Positions 6,598-20,790 of a stretch of 64,000 nt of DNA are shown here, piece by piece. The stretch is from assembly GCA_964291265.2 (NCBI GenBank), contig OZ219747.1, positions 1,152,001 through 1,216,000 on the forward strand. Reading direction: 5' to 3'. The number at the start of each line of letters is the position of its first letter. The first letter of the stretch is position 1. This DNA is from Alphaproteobacteria bacterium. Lineage in GTDB: Bacteria; Pseudomonadota; Alphaproteobacteria; SP197. The notes under the pieces were generated by a model. The model had not been told where the DNA came from. It saw nothing but the letters and a program-made list of their open reading frames with translations, and ran no database searches. Position numbers and translations under genes: made by a program.

Positions 6598-7663
6598 CGG
6601 GGAGCCCTTCCTTGGCCCGGCGGTCAATCCATCGGATGGCCATGACAGCCAGGCACGCCCCACGATCGTTCGGAGGCCCCGCGTCCTCATCGATTCGCCC
6701 GGTGAACGCGGCTGAGCGCTCTTCGGGTCAAGGACGTGACGGTGCAGGCTCATGGCCGGATGGCCGGCGGTTTCCTGTCGGCTCACCCGACGGGCACATC
6801 GAGGCGATACGCGCAGAACCTGATGTTGCTCGCAGCCAGGTACACCGACGCCACCCGTGAACCTCCGGCCGAAGAAGCGCACCGAGGACGGAGTCGTCTC
6901 GGCACAGCAGAAGCCAAGCGGCGGACGTCGCCGCGAAGAACAGGTGTTGGGCGCGTGCGGCTTGCGCGGATACCGCGCACTGTGAAGGCGACCGCCGCCA
7001 TGCCGGCATCCCTCCAGGTGGCAGCGCTCCGCCTCGGCCGCATCAATCCTTATCAAGGAGAGGCCAGACATGGGCGCAGGAAAGCATGGAACCCGGGAAG
7101 GAAACGTGCGACATTGACTGGCCTCCGCTGATCTCATCGTCACGGAGACAAGCCCCTCGGCCGACTTCTTGCAGGTCGGTCGAAGGGCAACCACCCCAGA
7201 CCAGCAGACAATTCAAGCAGAACCGACGGAATCCACGTCAGAAATCACGCAAACGCTTTCTGGCGCACCTGGAATCCGTCATGTCCGTGGTGTTGCTGTC
7301 GCGGGATTCACCCCGCCTTCAGCGTGATTTCGCCAACTCCAGGAACTGGCGTTTCCGTCTCGCTTCTCACGGCGGTGGTTCCTGCATCCGCGAGCAGTCC
7401 GTGATGGAAGGTGGGGACAACACGCCGGGGGCGGTGCTCTGCGAACGTTCAGGACCAGGTGCTGCGCAGAAACGGCGTCACTTTCGGCCCCGGCGACCCG
7501 TAGTGTTCCCTGTGGAACCTGCTGGCACTCGCCGGCATCGACGAAGACGACTGGACGCCTGAGGTTTCGATACTGGACCCCGCCGGGAACGCTGGATGAT
7601 GGGCGAGAAGAGCGGCCGGGCTTGCGGGTTCTTGGCGCCCTCCCGGAAGGCGCCCTTGCGGAT

Positions 7664-14141: not shown

Positions 14142-14294
14142 CTTGATTCTTCCCCCCGGAGGTCCGTCGTGACGCATGCGCACGGCACCGCTCCTCCTTG
14201 ATCGCCAGCCTAGTCAGCCGGTCCGACGCGCGTCAAGACTGTGATCACAGATTGACAGGAAAGGGCAGGACCGAGCAGATTGCCGGGACGTACC

Positions 14295-14627
14295 GTGGCC
14301 CCCTGTTCCTTCCTACACCTGATGGCGACAGCTCTCGGTCTCGGTCCCCGCCCGGGTCCCGTGTTCGGCCGGGCCGTTCTCCGCAGGCGATACGACGTCG
14401 CGATCATGGGCGGCGCAGGTCACGGTCTTGCGGCCGCATACTACCTGGCCGATGAGCATGGTGTCAGCGATGTCGTGGTCATGGAGAAGGGCTGGTTGGG
14501 CGGTGGCAATACGGGGCGCAACACGACCATGGTGCGCGCCGACTACCTGCTGCCGGACAACCAGGAGTTCTTCGGCCATGCGCGCTCCATGTGGCCGCCC
14601 CTGTCACGCGAGCTCAACTTCAATGTC
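14295..14627 (+). pseudogene. soxB: sarcosine oxidase beta subunit, N-terminal fragment
   Basis: YDVAIMGGAGHGLAAAYYLA, EKGWLGGGNTGRNTT, LSRELNFNV; similarity ends abruptly after about 110 codons. Confidence 0.85.
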
Positions 14628-15152
14628 ATCGATGTCCCGCCCGAGGCGCTGTCGTTTCCGGGATACCCGGTTCGACGGCGTTCGTGCGCGTGTCTTCCGC
14701 ATCAGCTACTCCGGCCAACTGGCCTACGAAATCCATGTCGGCGCGAAGCACGGCGAACGGTTGTGGGATGCGGTGGCGGCGGCCGGCACGCCCTTCGGCA
14801 TCGCGCCCTATGGCGTCGAAGCCCTTGATGTCATGCGGATCGAAAAGGGCCATTGCGCCGGCAGCGAGTTCGACGGCCGCACGGCACCCGCTGAACTGGG
14901 CCTCGACCGCATGACAGGGCGTGTAAGCGCCAGCATTCCCTTCATCAGCTGTTGGTCGGGTTTCGTCGGACCGGCGCACACCCATTCCTCGCGGCGCGAT
15001 TCTCGTGGCCGGGACGGCACGATCCGAAGCTCTGGGCCACGTGACCGCATCCGTCATCGGTCCGACGCTCGGTCAGCCCATCGCGTTGGCCATGCTCCGG
15101 GGATCGATCGGCGACGATGAACTCCGTGCCGTCTCGTCCGTCGCCGGCCCTC
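14628..15152 (+). pseudogene. soxA: sarcosine oxidase alpha subunit, C-terminal (GcvT-like) fragment, frameshifted and interrupted by the IS21 element
   Basis: RVFRISYSGQLAYEI, PYGVEALDVMRIEKGH, DGRTAPAELGLDRM. Confidence 0.85.
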
Positions 15153-15201
15153 TGTTGATGGCTGCATAGAACGGCGGGATTTCGGCGATTTGCCGCGCTT
15201 T
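15153..15201 (+). repeat. left terminal inverted repeat (IRL)
   Basis: 34/49 identity by hand alignment to the reverse complement of 20430-20478, with a perfect core TAGAACGGCGGGAT (15167-15180). Confidence 0.9.
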
Positions 15202-15220
15202 GTCAGGGTCGTGTTTCTTC

Positions 15221-15312
15221 CCTGTTGTCAGGTCCTATTGTCACGTCCTGTTGTCGTGGGTTCAGTGTTCGGCTGATTGTCTCCCCGAGCGCCGCCCGTT
15301 TTCCTATTGTCG
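15221..15312 (+). repeat. subterminal CCT(G/A)TTGTC repeats
   Basis: Copies at 15221, 15234 and 15247 (13-bp period) and at 15303; an inverted partial copy ACAATAGG lies at 20340-20347 near the right end. Confidence 0.7.
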
Positions 15313-15636
15313 TTTTGGTCCGGTTCGGATTGTTCCGTCGGCCTCTGCTTCGGTCTTGGTGACGGTTGCCGGGAGGGTTTCGGTTCCGAGGCACTCGCGG
15401 GATCGTCTGTTTTCCCTGTGGTCTGGGTCGTGTTGTCCGGTCCCGGGGCGGCGTTTTTGCCGCCGCCCCGGGTGGATGCTAGATCGGCATCGAAAGAAAG
15501 AGCGATGCGATGCCGGGCAGAGTTGTGATGACGCCCCCCGGCGCAGCACCCGGACGAGCCGGTCACGGGGGACCGAACTCCCGTGTATTGTCGAGCCATT
15601 TTGCGTCCGGGTCCACCCCCGCTCTCGAGACGGATC

Positions 15637-16113
15637 GTGTGCACGACGGGACGACTGTTCAACTGCAAGCGGTGTCAGCGGCAGGTTGTTCTCTGCCGGT
15701 CGTGTGACCGGGGGCATGTGTATTGCTCCGATGAGTGCAGGGAGCGGTCCCGGATCGAGCGGCGCCGCGCGTCGCGTCGTCGCTACCAGAGCACGCTGAG
15801 GGGCCGTGAGACGGGCCGTCACCGCCAGCGGCGTTACCGGCTCCGCAAGGCGGAGGAGGCGCGTGCGTTGAAGGCCAGGGCGGCGATGCTTGCCGAGATC
15901 ATGGGCACGCAGACGTCTGCTGTGGTGCTGCTTGGCGACGTTCCGGCGGTGTCTGGAGACGCCGGTTCCGAAGAAATCGTTACGGACCACCCTTCCCGAC
16001 TGCTGCCGACCTCCCTACCTGCGGTTGTGAAGGCGCGAGAGCGACGCGAATCGCCGCTTCGGTGCGCCCGGTGCGGACGGGTCGTGACGCATGTGGTGCT
16101 GAGGGACCTGTGA
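15637..16113 (+). CDS. Cys-rich, basic hypothetical protein (putative Zn-binding) upstream of istA
   Basis: LFNCKRCQRQVVLCRSCDRGHVYCSDEC, an Arg-rich helix, and C-terminal CARCGR; start codon uncertain. Confidence 0.7.
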   Translation: MCTTGRLFNCKRCQRQVVLCRSCDRGHVYCSDECRERSRIERRRASRRRYQSTLRGRETGRHRQRRYRLRKAEEARALKARAAMLAEIMGTQTSAVVLLGDVPAVSGDAGSEEIVTDHPSRLLPTSLPAVVKARERRESPLRCARCGRVVTHVVLRDL

Positions 16114-16145
16114 TGCGGCGTTGAGGAACCAAAGGGAGGGAGTTC

Positions 16146-17639
16146 ATGGCGATCGACGAGGACACGCGGGCGACGATCGTGCGGCTGTCGCGGGCCGAGG
16201 GCTGGGCTGTGGGGACGATTGCCCGGCATCTCGGCGTGCACCACGGCACGGTGACGCGGGCGCTCAAGGCGTCGGGGCAGGAGCGGCGGCCGCGGGCCAA
16301 GCTCATCGACCCCTTCGTTGCCTTCCTCGGGGAGCGTCTTGAGGCGTCGCCGGACCTTCCGGCCAGCACGCTCTGGCGACAGGTCGTGGCCCTGGGCTAC
16401 CGCGGCGGCGAGGATCACTTCCGTCACGACCTGCGCCGCCTCGGGCTGAGGCCGGTGAAGAGGCCCGAGCCGTCGCTGCGGCTGAGCTTCCTTCCGGGCG
16501 AGCAGGCGCAGGTTGACTGGGCCGAGTTCGGGAAGGTCCGCATTGGCCGGGCGGAGCGCAGGCTCATGGGGCTTCTCGTCACCCTCAGCTACTCGCGCCA
16601 GACTGTCCTGAGCCTGTTCCACGACGCGCGGATGGCCAGCTTCCTGCAAGGCCATGTCGAGGCTTTCGCGGCATTCGGGGGTGTGCCGCGGAGGCTTCTG
16701 TACGACAACCTGAAGAGTGCCGTGGTGACGCGCCGCGGCAAGGCGGTCACCTATCATCCGATGCTGCTCGGCCTCGCGGCCCACTATGCCTTCGAACCGA
16801 GCGCCGCCTGGCCCAGGAGCCCGCAGGAGAAGGGCCGCGTGGAACGCCGTGTGCGCTTCGCGCGCACCGGGTTCTTCGCCGGGCGCGACATCACGGTCCC
16901 GCTCGGCGAGCTCAACGCCGCGGTTCGGGAGTGGTGCTTCGGCGCCGCCGCGGAGCGGCCCTGGCCGGACGACGACAGTCTCCTGGTGCGGGACGCCTTC
17001 GCCCGGGAGAGGGAGCACCTGATCGTCCTTCCCGTCGACCCCTTCCCGCATCACGAGGTCCGCCCGGTGCGCATCGACAAGACCTGCCACGCCCGCTTCG
17101 ACACCAACGACTACAGCGTTCCGGGTAGCTTCTCCAAGGCCCTGCTGACGCTGGTCGCCGACCGCGACGAGGTCCGCATCCTCGACGGCGCCGACGAGGT
17201 CGCGCGCCACCGACGCTCCTACGACAGGAAGCAGGCCGTCACCGATCCGGAGCATGCCAGGGCGATCGCCGCGGGCAAGCGGCGGGCCCGCTCCATGAGC
17301 GTCCGCGACCGGGTCCTGCGCACCGTGCCGCGGGCCGAGGAGATGCTGGCGCGCGCCGGGACCAACGGGCGCAACGTGGCCTCCTGCGCCCGGATGCTGG
17401 AGACGCTTCTCAACGCGCACGGCGCCGACGCTCTCGACCGGGCTGTCGCCACGGCGCTGGAGCGCGGCTCGTGCCACCCCGAAACCGTGCGCGTCATCAT
17501 CGAGGAGCGCCGCCGGGAGCAGGGCCTGCCGCCCCTCAGCATCGCCGACGACGGCCGCGGCGGCCGTGGCACGACGCCGCGGGGGACCGCTCTCGACGCC
17601 TACGACAGGCCCGAAGCCAGCGCCAGGAACAAGACATGA
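16146..17639 (+). CDS. istA: IS21-family DDE transposase
   Basis: N-terminal HTH (IARHLGVHHGTV); PGEQAQVDW, LLYDNLKSAV, KGRVERRV (DDE); NDYSVP; SD GGAGGG. Confidence 0.95.
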   Translation: MAIDEDTRATIVRLSRAEGWAVGTIARHLGVHHGTVTRALKASGQERRPRAKLIDPFVAFLGERLEASPDLPASTLWRQVVALGYRGGEDHFRHDLRRLGLRPVKRPEPSLRLSFLPGEQAQVDWAEFGKVRIGRAERRLMGLLVTLSYSRQTVLSLFHDARMASFLQGHVEAFAAFGGVPRRLLYDNLKSAVVTRRGKAVTYHPMLLGLAAHYAFEPSAAWPRSPQEKGRVERRVRFARTGFFAGRDITVPLGELNAAVREWCFGAAAERPWPDDDSLLVRDAFAREREHLIVLPVDPFPHHEVRPVRIDKTCHARFDTNDYSVPGSFSKALLTLVADRDEVRILDGADEVARHRRSYDRKQAVTDPEHARAIAAGKRRARSMSVRDRVLRTVPRAEEMLARAGTNGRNVASCARMLETLLNAHGADALDRAVATALERGSCHPETVRVIIEERRREQGLPPLSIADDGRGGRGTTPRGTALDAYDRPEASARNKT

Positions 17640-18337
17640 GCGAGCTCAGGGAGCGTGCCCGGGCGCTCGGCCTCCACGGGCTCGTCGAACGCTGGGACGA
17701 GGTCGCCGGGACCGCATGGATCGAGGAGGTGGTCAGCGGCGAGGAACAGGCCCGCAGGGCCCGCAGCCACGAGCGCCGCCGCGCCGCGGCGCGGCTGCCC
17801 GCCTTCAAGCCCCTGGCGGACTTCGACTGGACATGGCCGCGCGACATCAGCCGGGCTCATGTCGAAGCGCTCCTCGGCCTCGGCTTCGTCGACCGTGCGG
17901 ACAACGCCGTGCTCGTCGGCGGGCAGGGCACCGGAAAGACCATGATCGCCGCCAACGTGGCGCACCAGGCCCTGCTGCACGGCCACACCGTCCGCTTCGA
18001 GAAGGCGCCGGAACTGCTCGAGGCACTCGCCGAGACCGTCTCGCGCAGCGAGCTGCGCCGCCGCCTCGCGATCCTCGCCAGGCCCCGCCTGCTCGTCCTC
18101 GACGAAATCGGCTACGTGACCCTCGAAAGCCACCATGCCGACATCCTCTACGCCATCGTCTCGCGGCGCTATCAGCGCCGCTCGACCATGGTCACGACAA
18201 GCCTCGCCTTCGCCCAGTGGGACCGCGTCTTCCCCAGCGCCTCCGGCATCGCCGGCACCGTCGACCGGCTCATGCACGACGCAACCCTCATCTCCATCGA
18301 CAGCGACTCCTGGCGGCTCAGGCGTGAAACCCGATAA
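17636..18337 (+). CDS. istB: IS21-family AAA+ helper ATPase
   Basis: ATGA overlap with istA; KPLADFDW, GGQGTGKT, LLVLDEIGY, DRLMH, SWR. Confidence 0.95.
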   Translation: MSELRERARALGLHGLVERWDEVAGTAWIEEVVSGEEQARRARSHERRRAAARLPAFKPLADFDWTWPRDISRAHVEALLGLGFVDRADNAVLVGGQGTGKTMIAANVAHQALLHGHTVRFEKAPELLEALAETVSRSELRRRLAILARPRLLVLDEIGYVTLESHHADILYAIVSRRYQRRSTMVTTSLAFAQWDRVFPSASGIAGTVDRLMHDATLISIDSDSWRLRRETR

Positions 18338-19217
18338 ACCCCGCCGCGTCGACTTCGACGCCGTCAAGCGCATGCCGTTCGAACGCATCGCCGCCGACTG
18401 GGGATACGTCCGCGACGAACAGGCCTCGACACGCGCCAACCCCGTCCTGTGCGCACCCGGCCTGCCGAAGCTCGTCACGAAGTGCCTCAACAACGGACAC
18501 TGGGTCTACTTCAACACCCAGAACGATGAAGACAACGGAACCGTCATCGACTTCATGCTCAACCGCGGACTGGCCTTCGCCGACATCTGCACCCGCTTCA
18601 CAGCACCCGACACCGCGCCACGCGACTTCCGCAGCCTCTGGGCCGCGGCAACGCCCGATGCGGCCCCGGACTGGCTCACCGGGCGCGGCATCCTCCCGGA
18701 GACCCTCGACACCTGCCGCCCCCTGGTCCGCCGCGACCACAACGGACGCGTCCTCTTCGCCCATCGCAACAGGAAGCGAAAGCTCACCGGCTTCGAGATC
18801 GGTCCCCCCGACGGACCGAAACGCTTCGCCACCGGTGGAACCCGAAGCCTGTTCGCCGTCCGCGCCGGAACCGCCGCGGACCTCGAGGCCCTCGTCATCA
18901 CCGAAAGCGCCGTCGACGCCCTCAGCCTGGCCCAGATCGACCAATGTCCCCCCAGCCACGCCTTCCTCTCCACCGCCGGGGCACCCTCGCGAAGACAGCA
19001 CGAACAGATCAGCCTCGCCGCAAGCAGCCTGCCCAACGTCAGGACCATCGTCCTCGCCCAGGACCACGACGAGGCCGGAGAGCGACAGGCCGAAACCCTG
19101 CGCAAAAAGATGAAGCTCCCCTCCCACGTCTCGTTCCACAGACGCAGACCGCCGGAAAACGCCGACTGGAACGACGTCGTCAACGCCAGGACCAAAGAAC
19201 CACAAGCGAGATCATGA
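18324..19217 (+). CDS. Toprim-domain primase-like protein (DUF3991/Toprim_2-type)
   Basis: GTG overlapping the istB end; GTVIDFM, WLTGRGI, VITESAVDALS, VLAQDHDEAG (DxD), DWND. Confidence 0.85.
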   Translation: MKPDKPRRVDFDAVKRMPFERIAADWGYVRDEQASTRANPVLCAPGLPKLVTKCLNNGHWVYFNTQNDEDNGTVIDFMLNRGLAFADICTRFTAPDTAPRDFRSLWAAATPDAAPDWLTGRGILPETLDTCRPLVRRDHNGRVLFAHRNRKRKLTGFEIGPPDGPKRFATGGTRSLFAVRAGTAADLEALVITESAVDALSLAQIDQCPPSHAFLSTAGAPSRRQHEQISLAASSLPNVRTIVLAQDHDEAGERQAETLRKKMKLPSHVSFHRRRPPENADWNDVVNARTKEPQARS

Positions 19218-19534
19218 CCACGTCCGTCACAAGGAGACCACTCATGCCCCTCACGCCCGCCGAAAAGCAGCGGCGATACCGGGAACGGCGCAAGGCCGGC
19301 ATCCCTCCCGTCCACACCCCAAAGCATCGTGACCGGCGCTCGCGACCGCAACGCTGGAACGACGCCGTGGCCGAACTGCGCGCCCTGCAGGACGAATGGC
19401 GTGACCGCCTCGACAGCATCCCCGAAACCCTCCGTGACACGCCTTACGGAGAACGCCTGCAGATCGTCGCCGATGCCGACATCGAGGCCCTCGAGGACAT
19501 CGAACCGCCACGCGGCTACGGAAGGGATACGTGA
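19214..19534 (+). CDS. small hypothetical protein with basic N-terminus (possible DNA-binding)
   Basis: ATGA-coupled to the Toprim gene; PLTPAEKQRRYRERRK...RPQRWNDAVAEL...PPRGYGRD. Confidence 0.75.
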   Translation: MTTSVTRRPLMPLTPAEKQRRYRERRKAGIPPVHTPKHRDRRSRPQRWNDAVAELRALQDEWRDRLDSIPETLRDTPYGERLQIVADADIEALEDIEPPRGYGRDT

Positions 19535-20104
19535 TCCCGCAAGACCCTTGAACGCGGTCACGCGTTACCATCCAGGAATGAGAACGTCTCACCCCGACGC
19601 GCCGCTCAGCCTCCCCGGGAAACTCCCGGGCCGTCCAAACGACACCGCATCACGAGACTGCCGCAGCCGCTGGCCGGACTGGCTTACAGGTCGCAGCATC
19701 CGCCCGAAAACACTCAACGCCTGCCGCACCCTGCAGGACGAATGGCGTGACCGCCTCGACAGCATCCCCGAAACCCTCCGTGACACGCCTTACGGAGAAC
19801 GCCTGCAGATCGTCGCCGATGCCGACATCGAGGCTCTCGAGGACATCGAACCGCCACGCGGCTACGGAAGGGACACGTAATCTCGCAAGACCCTTGAACG
19901 CGGTCACGCGTTACCATCCAGGAATGAGAACGTCTCACCCCGACGCGCCTCTCAGCCTCCCCGGGAAACCCCCGGGCCGTCCAAACGACACCACATCACG
20001 AGACTGCCGCAGCCGCTGAGCCGCAGCAACGCCCGATCCGCCGCCGGACTGGCTCACAGGTCGCAGCATCCGCCCGAAAACACTCGACGCCTGCCGCACC
20101 CTGC
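19383..20104 (+). repeat. tandem duplication, 346-bp period
   Basis: Copy 1 starts at 19383 and copy 2 at 19729 (CCCTGCAGGACGAATGG...); near-identical, with copy 2 carrying about 24 extra bp near 20018-20042. Confidence 0.92.
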
Positions 20105-20330
20105 GCCGCCGCAACCGCAACGCACGCAGCCTCTTCGCCCAGCGCAACAGAAACCGTCAGCTCTCCAGCCTCGAGATCGTCCCGCCCGACGAACCACGAC
20201 GAGGACGGAGAACGCCAGAACGAAACCACGCGCAAAAGCCTGAAGCTCCCCTCCCACATCACGTTCCACAAACGCCGAACGCCAGAAAACGCCGACCGGA
20301 ACGACATCGTCAACGTCAATGCAAGACCAA
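19987..20330 (+). pseudogene. degenerate, internally deleted copy of the Toprim gene
   Basis: Aligns codon-for-codon to 18609-18813 (with TGG changed to TGA) and then to about 19062-19195. Confidence 0.85.
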
Positions 20331-20429
20331 TGGGATCCAACAATAGGCAGAAAACAAAGACCGGGCGGACCTTCGTCCAATGCCGCACGTTCTCCTGTCG
20401 TGGTCACCCACTCACACGATCAGCGCCCA

Positions 20430-20478
20430 AAAGAGCGGTTCTCCGCCAATATCCCGCCGTTCTAAATCGCCGCCGACA
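20430..20478 (-). repeat. right terminal inverted repeat (IRR)
   Basis: ATCCCGCCGTTCTA at 20451-20464 is the reverse complement of the IRL core; the end is ACA followed by CCCTC. Confidence 0.9.
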
Positions 20479-20550
20479 CCCTCGATTGTCGCGGTGGAGA
20501 CCACCGGTCTGCCCTTCTACGATGCCAACGGCGGCAGGATGCGTGCATGA
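20479..20550 (+). pseudogene. soxA: extreme C-terminus of soxA, displaced by the IS21 element
   Basis: Reads IVAVETTGLPFYDANGGRMRA*, matching the SoxA-type terminus PFYDxxGxRxxx*. Confidence 0.75.
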
Positions 20551-20790
20551 CCGCGTTGTCGGATATCGCAGCGCAGCCATCAACACATGGACCGGATCAG
20601 GCACGAGCTGTTGACACGGATCAGCGAAGCCGCGCACGAGAGATCAAGGACGGTGATGATGCTCGGCGGACAGCGGAATGGCTCATCCTGGACGGGGAGT
20701 CAGATGGTGTGGCGACTGCTCAGCCGTTCATCGTGTTTGAGGAAAGCGACGCGTGGGAGAAACCGTCGCACGGTTCTGCCCGATCGATGC
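20547..20790 (+). pseudogene. possible sarcosine oxidase gamma subunit remnant
   Basis: ATGA overlap with the soxA stop, in the position expected for soxG; only weak motif support (EWLIL). Confidence 0.35.

Follow-up and report, generated by a model that had tools for sequence, protein, structure and literature searches.

An IS21-family transposon lineage that has stably acquired a Toprim primase-like gene

Insertion sequences (ISs) of the IS21 family, such as IS21 and IS5376, carry an istA-istB operon between inverted TG...CA ends, show many simple insertions, and duplicate 4-8 bp of target DNA. The described members have two open reading frames (ORFs), according to the available part of PMC10122671. 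A copy-out/paste-in route of transposition has been proposed for IS21 (PMC11208146, in excerpt), and a figure-eight intermediate is described as becoming a double-stranded circle through replication (PMC7780238, in excerpt). The element considered here occupies positions 15153-20478 (5,326 bp) of a 64,000-nt stretch of an alphaproteobacterial genome (contig OZ219747.1, positions 1,152,001 to 1,216,000; below, the window). It shares with IS21 and IS5376 the operon, the inverted ends, the short duplications and the many simple insertions. Unlike them, it has four fixed genes (orf1, istA, istB and a DUF3991/Toprim primase-like gene) plus a passenger, orf5, and the members of its clade measure 4.05-5.3 kb. 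The Toprim gene is a stably acquired, lineage-specific accessory under purifying selection, not part of the core of the family.

The element is an active, many-copy IS21-family transposon, present in 30 full-length copies with target duplications. IstA passes the NCBIfam model transpos_IS21 (NF033546; 222 bits against a cut-off of 160) and has motifs at D124, D187 and E233, which we take to be the DDE residues. IstB passes Pfam IstB_IS21 (171 bits against a cut-off of 24), contains Walker A and B motifs, and scores just below the cut-off of NCBIfam NF038214 (191 against 200 bits). The hallmarks of IS21 are all present: IstA, IstB directly downstream, inverted ends with TGT at the left edge and ACA at the right, and short duplications. 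The canonical two-gene form is not matched, since orf1, Toprim and orf5 also lie between the ends. An initial annotation of this DNA, made without database searches, had called the TGT...ACA edges and the flanking CCCTC duplication exact, and this holds, because the same ends delimit all 30 full-length copies found when the element's own genome (G000; two contigs, 4.83 Mb) was searched for others, as that annotation had advised. With so many copies sharing their ends, the boundaries are not a matter of chance. The copies are 98-100% identical, and a 49-nt end is conserved in an alignment of 8-9 related elements. The target duplication measures 5 bp at 21 copies, 6 bp at four and 7 bp at one, and is absent at the remaining four; thus, 26 of the 30 are simple insertions with matched 5-7-bp duplications. 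The genome as a whole contains 49 left ends and 42 right ends, several copies being nested in one another, and the family occupies 197,755 bp, or 4.1% of the genome. All 30 copies have an intact orf1 and 27 an intact orf5 (the other genes are given in Table 1). Five full copies lie inside or abut older ones (C2:295923-308929, 4058043-4075257, 4144635-4152391 and 4237410-4248078), which indicates that target immunity is weak or absent over time.

The initial annotation had suggested a profile and structure search of 18324-19217. The protein encoded there passes Pfam Toprim_2 and Toprim_3, with DUF3991 falling just under its cut-off. In an AlphaFold2 model built from 61 sequences (predicted local distance difference test score, 91.6), residues 94-290 have T7 gp4 primase as their best structural match (1nui; VIA Z 15.6, root-mean-square deviation 3.9, 179 aligned residues). 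DnaG cores match at Z ~12.5 (12.6 for the E. coli DnaG core), and the Toprim domains of topoisomerases match more weakly, at Z 11 over ~90 residues. The N-terminal domain (residues ~8-95), folded alone, is nearest to DnaG zinc-binding domains with weak scores (Z 6.1 and 5.5); its top four matches among 48,161 chains are all N-terminal domains of primases or Twinkle, at Z of only 6.1-4.0. All five catalytic acids are present (E194, D198, D247, D249 and D281); the first four align with those of T7 gp4, and D281 lies in a closing DWND motif. Residues were counted in the 29 close relatives of at least 265 aa, out of 39 (P0002-P0040), shorter sequences and one frameshifted row being left out. E194, D247 and D249 do not vary in these, and 28 of them have D281, the other being truncated. 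The model thus portrays a protein built as a DnaG-type primase, for which priming itself is predicted. As for a role in defence, PADLOC matches the protein no more than weakly and in part, by way of its Toprim domain (E 7e-6).

Retention of the gene was followed from two directions. A genome search starting from Toprim returned 52 loci. In 42 of them the gene immediately upstream is istB, and the remaining 10 are fragments no longer than 155 aa. Besides the element's own genome, 11 more have the gene behind istB, with IstA identity as low as 49%. Six named Alphaproteobacteria assemblies show the order orf1-istA-istB-Toprim intact and two others show it disrupted, and the relatives' elements have matching ends and 5-7-bp duplications. 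A search starting from IstA, and so not selecting for Toprim, covered 22 genomes of the same genus, 5 of which gave matches. The complete matches of at least 49%, in G785, G781 and G792 (IstA 49-70%), all have Toprim behind istB; G788 has a truncated istA, and G791 (47%) lacks Toprim. In a quick tree of 40 IstA rows, the 11 Toprim-bearing elements fall on one side of a branch with full support (Shimodaira-Hasegawa-like approximate likelihood ratio test, 100), the context of 15 rows being unknown. Distances in the IstA and Toprim trees correlate at 0.94 over 10 elements, the pairs not being independent. Estimates of dN/dS from 21 pairs of 7 sequences are 0.38 for Toprim, 0.36 for IstA, 0.32 for IstB and 0.58 for orf1, all probably overestimates because high GC content restricts synonymous change. 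For the IstA relatives at 59-62% identity (P0116-P0118) a gene context was not found, so that some members of the clade may have lost Toprim.

Outside this clade the gene is missing. All six of the next-closest relatives examined (IstA 42-47%; L064, L065, L082, L210, L211 and L218) keep orf1-istA-istB without Toprim, and two annotated plasmid copies have a short hypothetical gene in the Toprim slot. Since orf1 is present in all six, it is older than the capture of the primase. The initial annotation had regarded the additional genes as core machinery rather than captured cargo, and had recognized that this view would suffer if the closest istAB relatives lacked them and the genes traced to a one-off capture from a plasmid or an ICE (integrative and conjugative element). 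The next-closest relatives do lack Toprim, and its source is of the plasmid/ICE kind (see below), so that "core" must be given up; nevertheless, the gene is not a one-off capture, as it is fixed across the clade under selection like that on IstA. The small basic ORF fares worse. The proposed istB-Toprim-small ORF synteny recurs in its istB-Toprim part, but among other genomes' versions of the element only one, OZ241893, has orf5 (44%).

The outgroup of the element's primase (29-40% identity) points to plasmid transfer regions. None of its 80 metagenome loci, many of them short, lies beside istA or istB. A scan of its neighbours covered 72 of ~140 candidate ORFs, from 26 loci, and 18 of these loci carry a coupling protein, relaxase, RepA_C, ParA, topoisomerase III or tyrosine integrase. 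One inspected plasmid copy has mobC/relaxase on one side and a coupling protein on the other, and of 24 long homologues taken from a representative search, 13 are fused to relaxases; among 449 plasmid records, the best Toprim match is ~30%. The location of this outgroup in plasmid/ICE transfer regions indicates that the orf1-bearing IS21 lineage acquired a plasmid-transfer primase once and kept it. The plasmid/ICE DUF3991/Toprim_2 proteins belong to the same family and have the same fold and catalytic acids at 26-40% identity, all five acids being intact in 37 of 37 plasmid-type distant relatives. However, they adjoin coupling protein, relaxase, RepA or ParA genes or are fused to a relaxase, whereas the gene of the element lies inside IS ends and is coupled to istB. 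No biochemical study of the DUF3991/Toprim family was found in the literature searched.

Such an origin could also mean that the primase is cargo which benefits the host, co-resident plasmids or establishment after conjugation, and has no part in transposition. Apart from the source itself, this explanation can draw on the absence of the gene from six close relatives, on one IS21 layout in which the primase gene is convergent and uncoupled, and on orf5, which demonstrates that these elements do acquire passengers. Within the same genus, homologues of orf5 at 72-79% identity come after IS110 transposases and after istB genes that are unrelated, and the family occurs in 10 of 41 genomes searched, all of one genus (e.g. 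G000:C2:3033246-3033533). With one other version of the element having it, and with its rides behind IS110 and other IS21 transposases, orf5 was rejected as a core gene and is a promiscuous passenger. Selection equal to that on IstA, in a genome with 30 copies, is nevertheless hard to square with a benefit to the host. Together with retention of the primase across IstA divergence to 49%, and its repeated occurrence inside elements that have a transposase and an AAA ATPase, this makes the cargo explanation improbable.

The explanation tentatively preferred, at somewhat under an even chance, is that the element uses the primase as an accessory to prime the second strand in copy-out/paste-in transposition. 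The four genes would be expressed from one transcript with coupled translation. IstA would then join one strand of both ends to give a figure-eight; the element's primase would prime the exposed single strand, and host polymerase would finish the double-stranded circle, the donor copy being kept. Finally, IstA and IstB would insert the circle with a 5-7-bp duplication. Given the primase-less relatives and the host's own dnaG, the element's primase would not be a requirement for circle completion but would increase its yield. To judge by their gene context, the plasmid relatives of the primase may likewise work beside relaxases on transferred single strands. A 2004 study by Duval-Valentin reportedly found that replication of IS911 requires DnaG.

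The predominance of simple insertions with matched duplications fits copy-out/paste-in better than the formation of cointegrates. In Mu-like replicative transposition, the primase would prime the lagging strand at a Shapiro intermediate and cointegrates would result. IstA and IstB do resemble MuA/MuB and TnsB/TnsC (PMC10122671 and PMC11208146, in the parts available). There is, in addition, a 21-kb arrangement at C2:4237410-4258495 in which two direct copies surround a 5.1-kb segment and one duplication is common to the outer ends. A composite move or recombination fits this arrangement as well; 4 kb of the segment, itself repeat-rich, recurs at C2:3654556. The 26 simple insertions, the lack of a resolvase gene in the element, and the lack of any inverted pair with swapped duplications among the 49 left and 42 right ends make the Mu-like route quite unlikely. 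Less likely still, by a good way, is that the excised circle replicates transiently as a plasmid, with IstB and the primase as a minimal initiation module. This would accord with the description of IstB as a close paralogue of DnaC/I (PMC11208146, in excerpt) and with a second element type that adds an AAA_25 helicase gene to its primase. The element, however, lacks a helicase, an initiator, a relaxase and an iteron array, and its IstB is conserved as in primase-less relatives.

Several observations weigh against second-strand priming by the element's own protein. With a DnaG motif encoded by the host and relatives that do without Toprim, the primase is in principle dispensable. The assembly contains no right-left junction, none of its 42 right ends coming within 60 nt of a left end, and no conserved non-coding priming site common to different primase-bearing layouts was found. 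In three public runs of one study that contain the element, the assembled contigs showed no end-to-end joint, a result that speaks neither for nor against, because contigs drop rare forms; among the listed public runs with the element there was no RNA dataset. Other points come from the protein. It resembles T7 gp4 and DnaG in catalytic fold, in aligned Glu and Asp residues and, with weak scores, in an N-terminal fold like that of a zinc-binding domain, but it has no helicase or helicase-binding domain, and the N-terminal domain has no conserved Cys and one conserved His, and so not the four zinc ligands. Moreover, D198, which aligns with T7 gp4 D161 (reportedly essential), is Asp in 13 and Asn in 16 of the 29 close relatives, with six or more changes between the two along the tree.

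The absence of zinc ligands, and the Asn at D198 in a gene that is under selection, would be accommodated if the protein served transposition by gripping single-stranded or branched DNA, protecting it or recruiting host restart proteins, rather than by priming. Five arginines (R121, R136, R148, R167 and R174) are invariant in 26 of 26 close relatives, and a precedent is provided by primase-dead Twinkle, which still depends on its primase-like domains (PMC4417153, in the part available). Yet a purely structural role would have no need of fixed catalytic acids, and four of the five do not vary within the clade. The element's own protein has all five, as do 116 of 119 proteins examined in a second lineage. 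A binding role is therefore regarded as rather unlikely, and priming of the second strand stays the preferred explanation.

Primases of this kind are also found in other transposons. A second multicopy element of 5.16 kb in the same genome (G000:C2:47062-52222, L222, and five more places) contains a small ORF, an rve transposase, an AAA_22 ATPase, an AAA_25 helicase-type protein and a DUF3991/Toprim protein with ~30% identity to that of the IS21 element. Four complete copies have 5-bp duplications, two more are split by the IS21 element, and an isolated left-end fragment (89%) lies at 6828-7258 of the window. The family of this second primase has 1,705 matches; the three exceptions to its five intact acids are one Asn and two Glu changes. 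Elements of 4.0-4.24 kb with TGT...ACA ends, consisting of a Cys-rich ORF, an rve transposase, an AAA_22 ATPase and Toprim (L303, L306, L308, L312 and L314), occur in G782, G814, G854 and G857, and G782 has 15 Toprim copies. In a distant IS21 lineage of 3.43-3.47 kb (IstA 31%; L297:3056-6528, L299, L300 and L302, in G813 and G814), DUF3991/Toprim lies convergent to istAB inside ends that are flanked by 6-7-bp duplications. A hybrid remnant was seen at L219 (G785:C2:254500-261500), where istA-istB and the beginning of Toprim pass without a break into pieces of AAA_22 and AAA_25 from the rve-type element.

A 44-row primase tree separates the clade of the IS21 element (support 99), which is nearer to the plasmid/ICE group, from the primases of the three other layouts, which are intermixed in one group (support 100). 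A first FastTree run had made the two primase lineages sisters, an arrangement that was lost with more rows. The four layouts, every one of them a DDE transposase with an AAA+ helper, thus contain two or more primase lineages; the recurrence search started from the primase and so covered only transposons that carry one. It is conceivable, albeit more doubtful than probable, that bacterial DDE transposons equipped with AAA+ helpers repeatedly took up primases from plasmid transfer systems, and that these self-priming transposons (two IS21 and two rve+ExeA-type layouts, one with a helicase), which would start their own replication step rather than awaiting the host restart primosome, make up a class not yet described.

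Among described elements, the rve+AAA_22 type, with TGT...ACA or similar ends and 4-5-bp duplications, resembles Tn6049 by description only, Tn6049 having 12-bp ends and a 4-bp duplication (PMC4739549, in excerpt). The IS21 element differs from this type in that IstA and IstB gave no tblastn match to those transposases in its own genome, and its primase lineage is separate. The primase-like protein of NBU1 is said to help excision. The mobilizable transposons of Bacteroidales (MTnPi types and NBU1) are likewise small integrated elements with a primase-family gene beside a recombinase (PMC4755523, in the part available), but their movement is by excision and conjugation, with tyrosine integrases and relaxases, in contrast to the DDE transposase of the IS21 element. 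Hallmarks of an ICE or an integrative and mobilizable element (relaxase, coupling protein or integrase) are absent from its five ORFs, the remainder being leader, duplicates and ends. No publication describing an IS21 element with a primase or Toprim gene was found in a search whose coverage excluded most subscription journals and ISfinder, where an entry may exist.

The features of the element are collected in Table 1.

Table 1. Features of the IS21-family element and its flanks (window positions)
Feature	Position	Strand	Evidence
Host flank: decayed DAO/GCV_T gene cut by the insertion	14280..15152	+	
Left target-site duplication, CCCTC	15148..15152	.	sequence
Left terminal inverted repeat, begins TGT; 34/49 nt match the right end	15153..15201	+	same end at 49 left ends
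11-bp GC-rich hairpin before the leader; sequence variable among relatives	15443..15471	+	
Conserved structured non-coding leader ahead of orf1	~15490..15640	+	two-sided changes in 8/32 pairs, 13 sequences
orf1, 158-aa Cys-rich basic protein; longest frame from 15583	15637..16113	+	
istA, 497-aa IS21 DDE transposase	16146..17639	+	intact in 30/30 copies
istB, 233-aa AAA+ helper ATPase; ATGA overlap with istA	17636..18337	+	intact in 30/30 copies
DUF3991/Toprim primase-like gene, 297 aa; 14-nt overlap with istB	18324..19217	+	intact in 29/30 copies
orf5, 96-aa small basic protein; longest frame from 19214	19244..19534	+	stop codon in 3/30 copies
Decayed internal duplications	19640..20318	+	
Right terminal inverted repeat, ends ACA	20430..20478	-	42 right ends in the genome
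Right target-site duplication, CCCTC	20479..20483	.	

The last four ORFs had been thought to overlap one another. This applies to istA/istB and istB/Toprim; orf5 probably does not overlap Toprim, since it more likely starts at ATG 19244, where its homologues start and upstream of which there is an AAGGAG site. The start of orf1 is probably GTG 15637. Neither orf1 nor orf5 matches a Pfam, NCBIfam or PADLOC family, orf1 having a single weak PHROG match of unknown function, and in the ESM Atlas both matched only unnamed clusters. An IS110-type element with orf5 adjoins a reverse-transcriptase-like ORF near 3033536 of G000:C2, in several copies, and RVT_1 stands next to IS110 in relatives of the genus. 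Downstream of the genes, 19725-20018 is a 97% repeat of 19379-19672 (the region of the 3' half of orf5), and pieces of Toprim are duplicated at 19640-19733, 19986-20195 and 20176-20318 (81-85% identity). This debris, together with orf5, accounts for the 5.3 kb of the element as against 4.05-4.72 kb in relatives. Two ~4.97-kb copies, C2:74664-79638 and C2:3822813-3827783, are missing one unit of a 346-bp internal duplication.

The leader has no match in Rfam. It is also found in the Toprim-less element of G791, and thus is not specific to the primase; in four other Toprim-less relatives its model gave weak hairpin scores or none. Because it occurs in that element and was not found in other primase-bearing layouts, the leader was rejected for now as a recognition site for the primase. 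One of its helices closes just upstream of the likely ribosome-binding site of orf1, and the leader may control orf1 translation. No sigma-70 promoter or terminator was detected in 15153-16200. Outside the element, the host gene broken by the insertion, which carries DAO and GCV_T pieces, had already decayed beforehand. In host sequence ~95 bp past the right end, at 20573-20585 of the window, is a perfect 13-nt inverted copy of the left end; there are only 4 matches to it genome-wide outside normal left ends, and it may be due to chance.

IS21 serves as a structural model of ATPase-regulated transposition, whose replicative step has only been proposed, and copy-out elements are thought to depend on host replication for this step. 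A lineage of IS21 in which selection maintains a primase of its own offers a direct handle on the replicative step in the form of a single gene that can be removed or inactivated, for which the natural primase-less and Asn-variant relatives serve as controls, and would give the DUF3991/Toprim family a first function. If priming by the element is confirmed, a shortage of host restart, in some hosts or growth states, need not keep such elements from transposing, and this may help to explain expansions such as the 4.1% of a genome that is occupied by one element.

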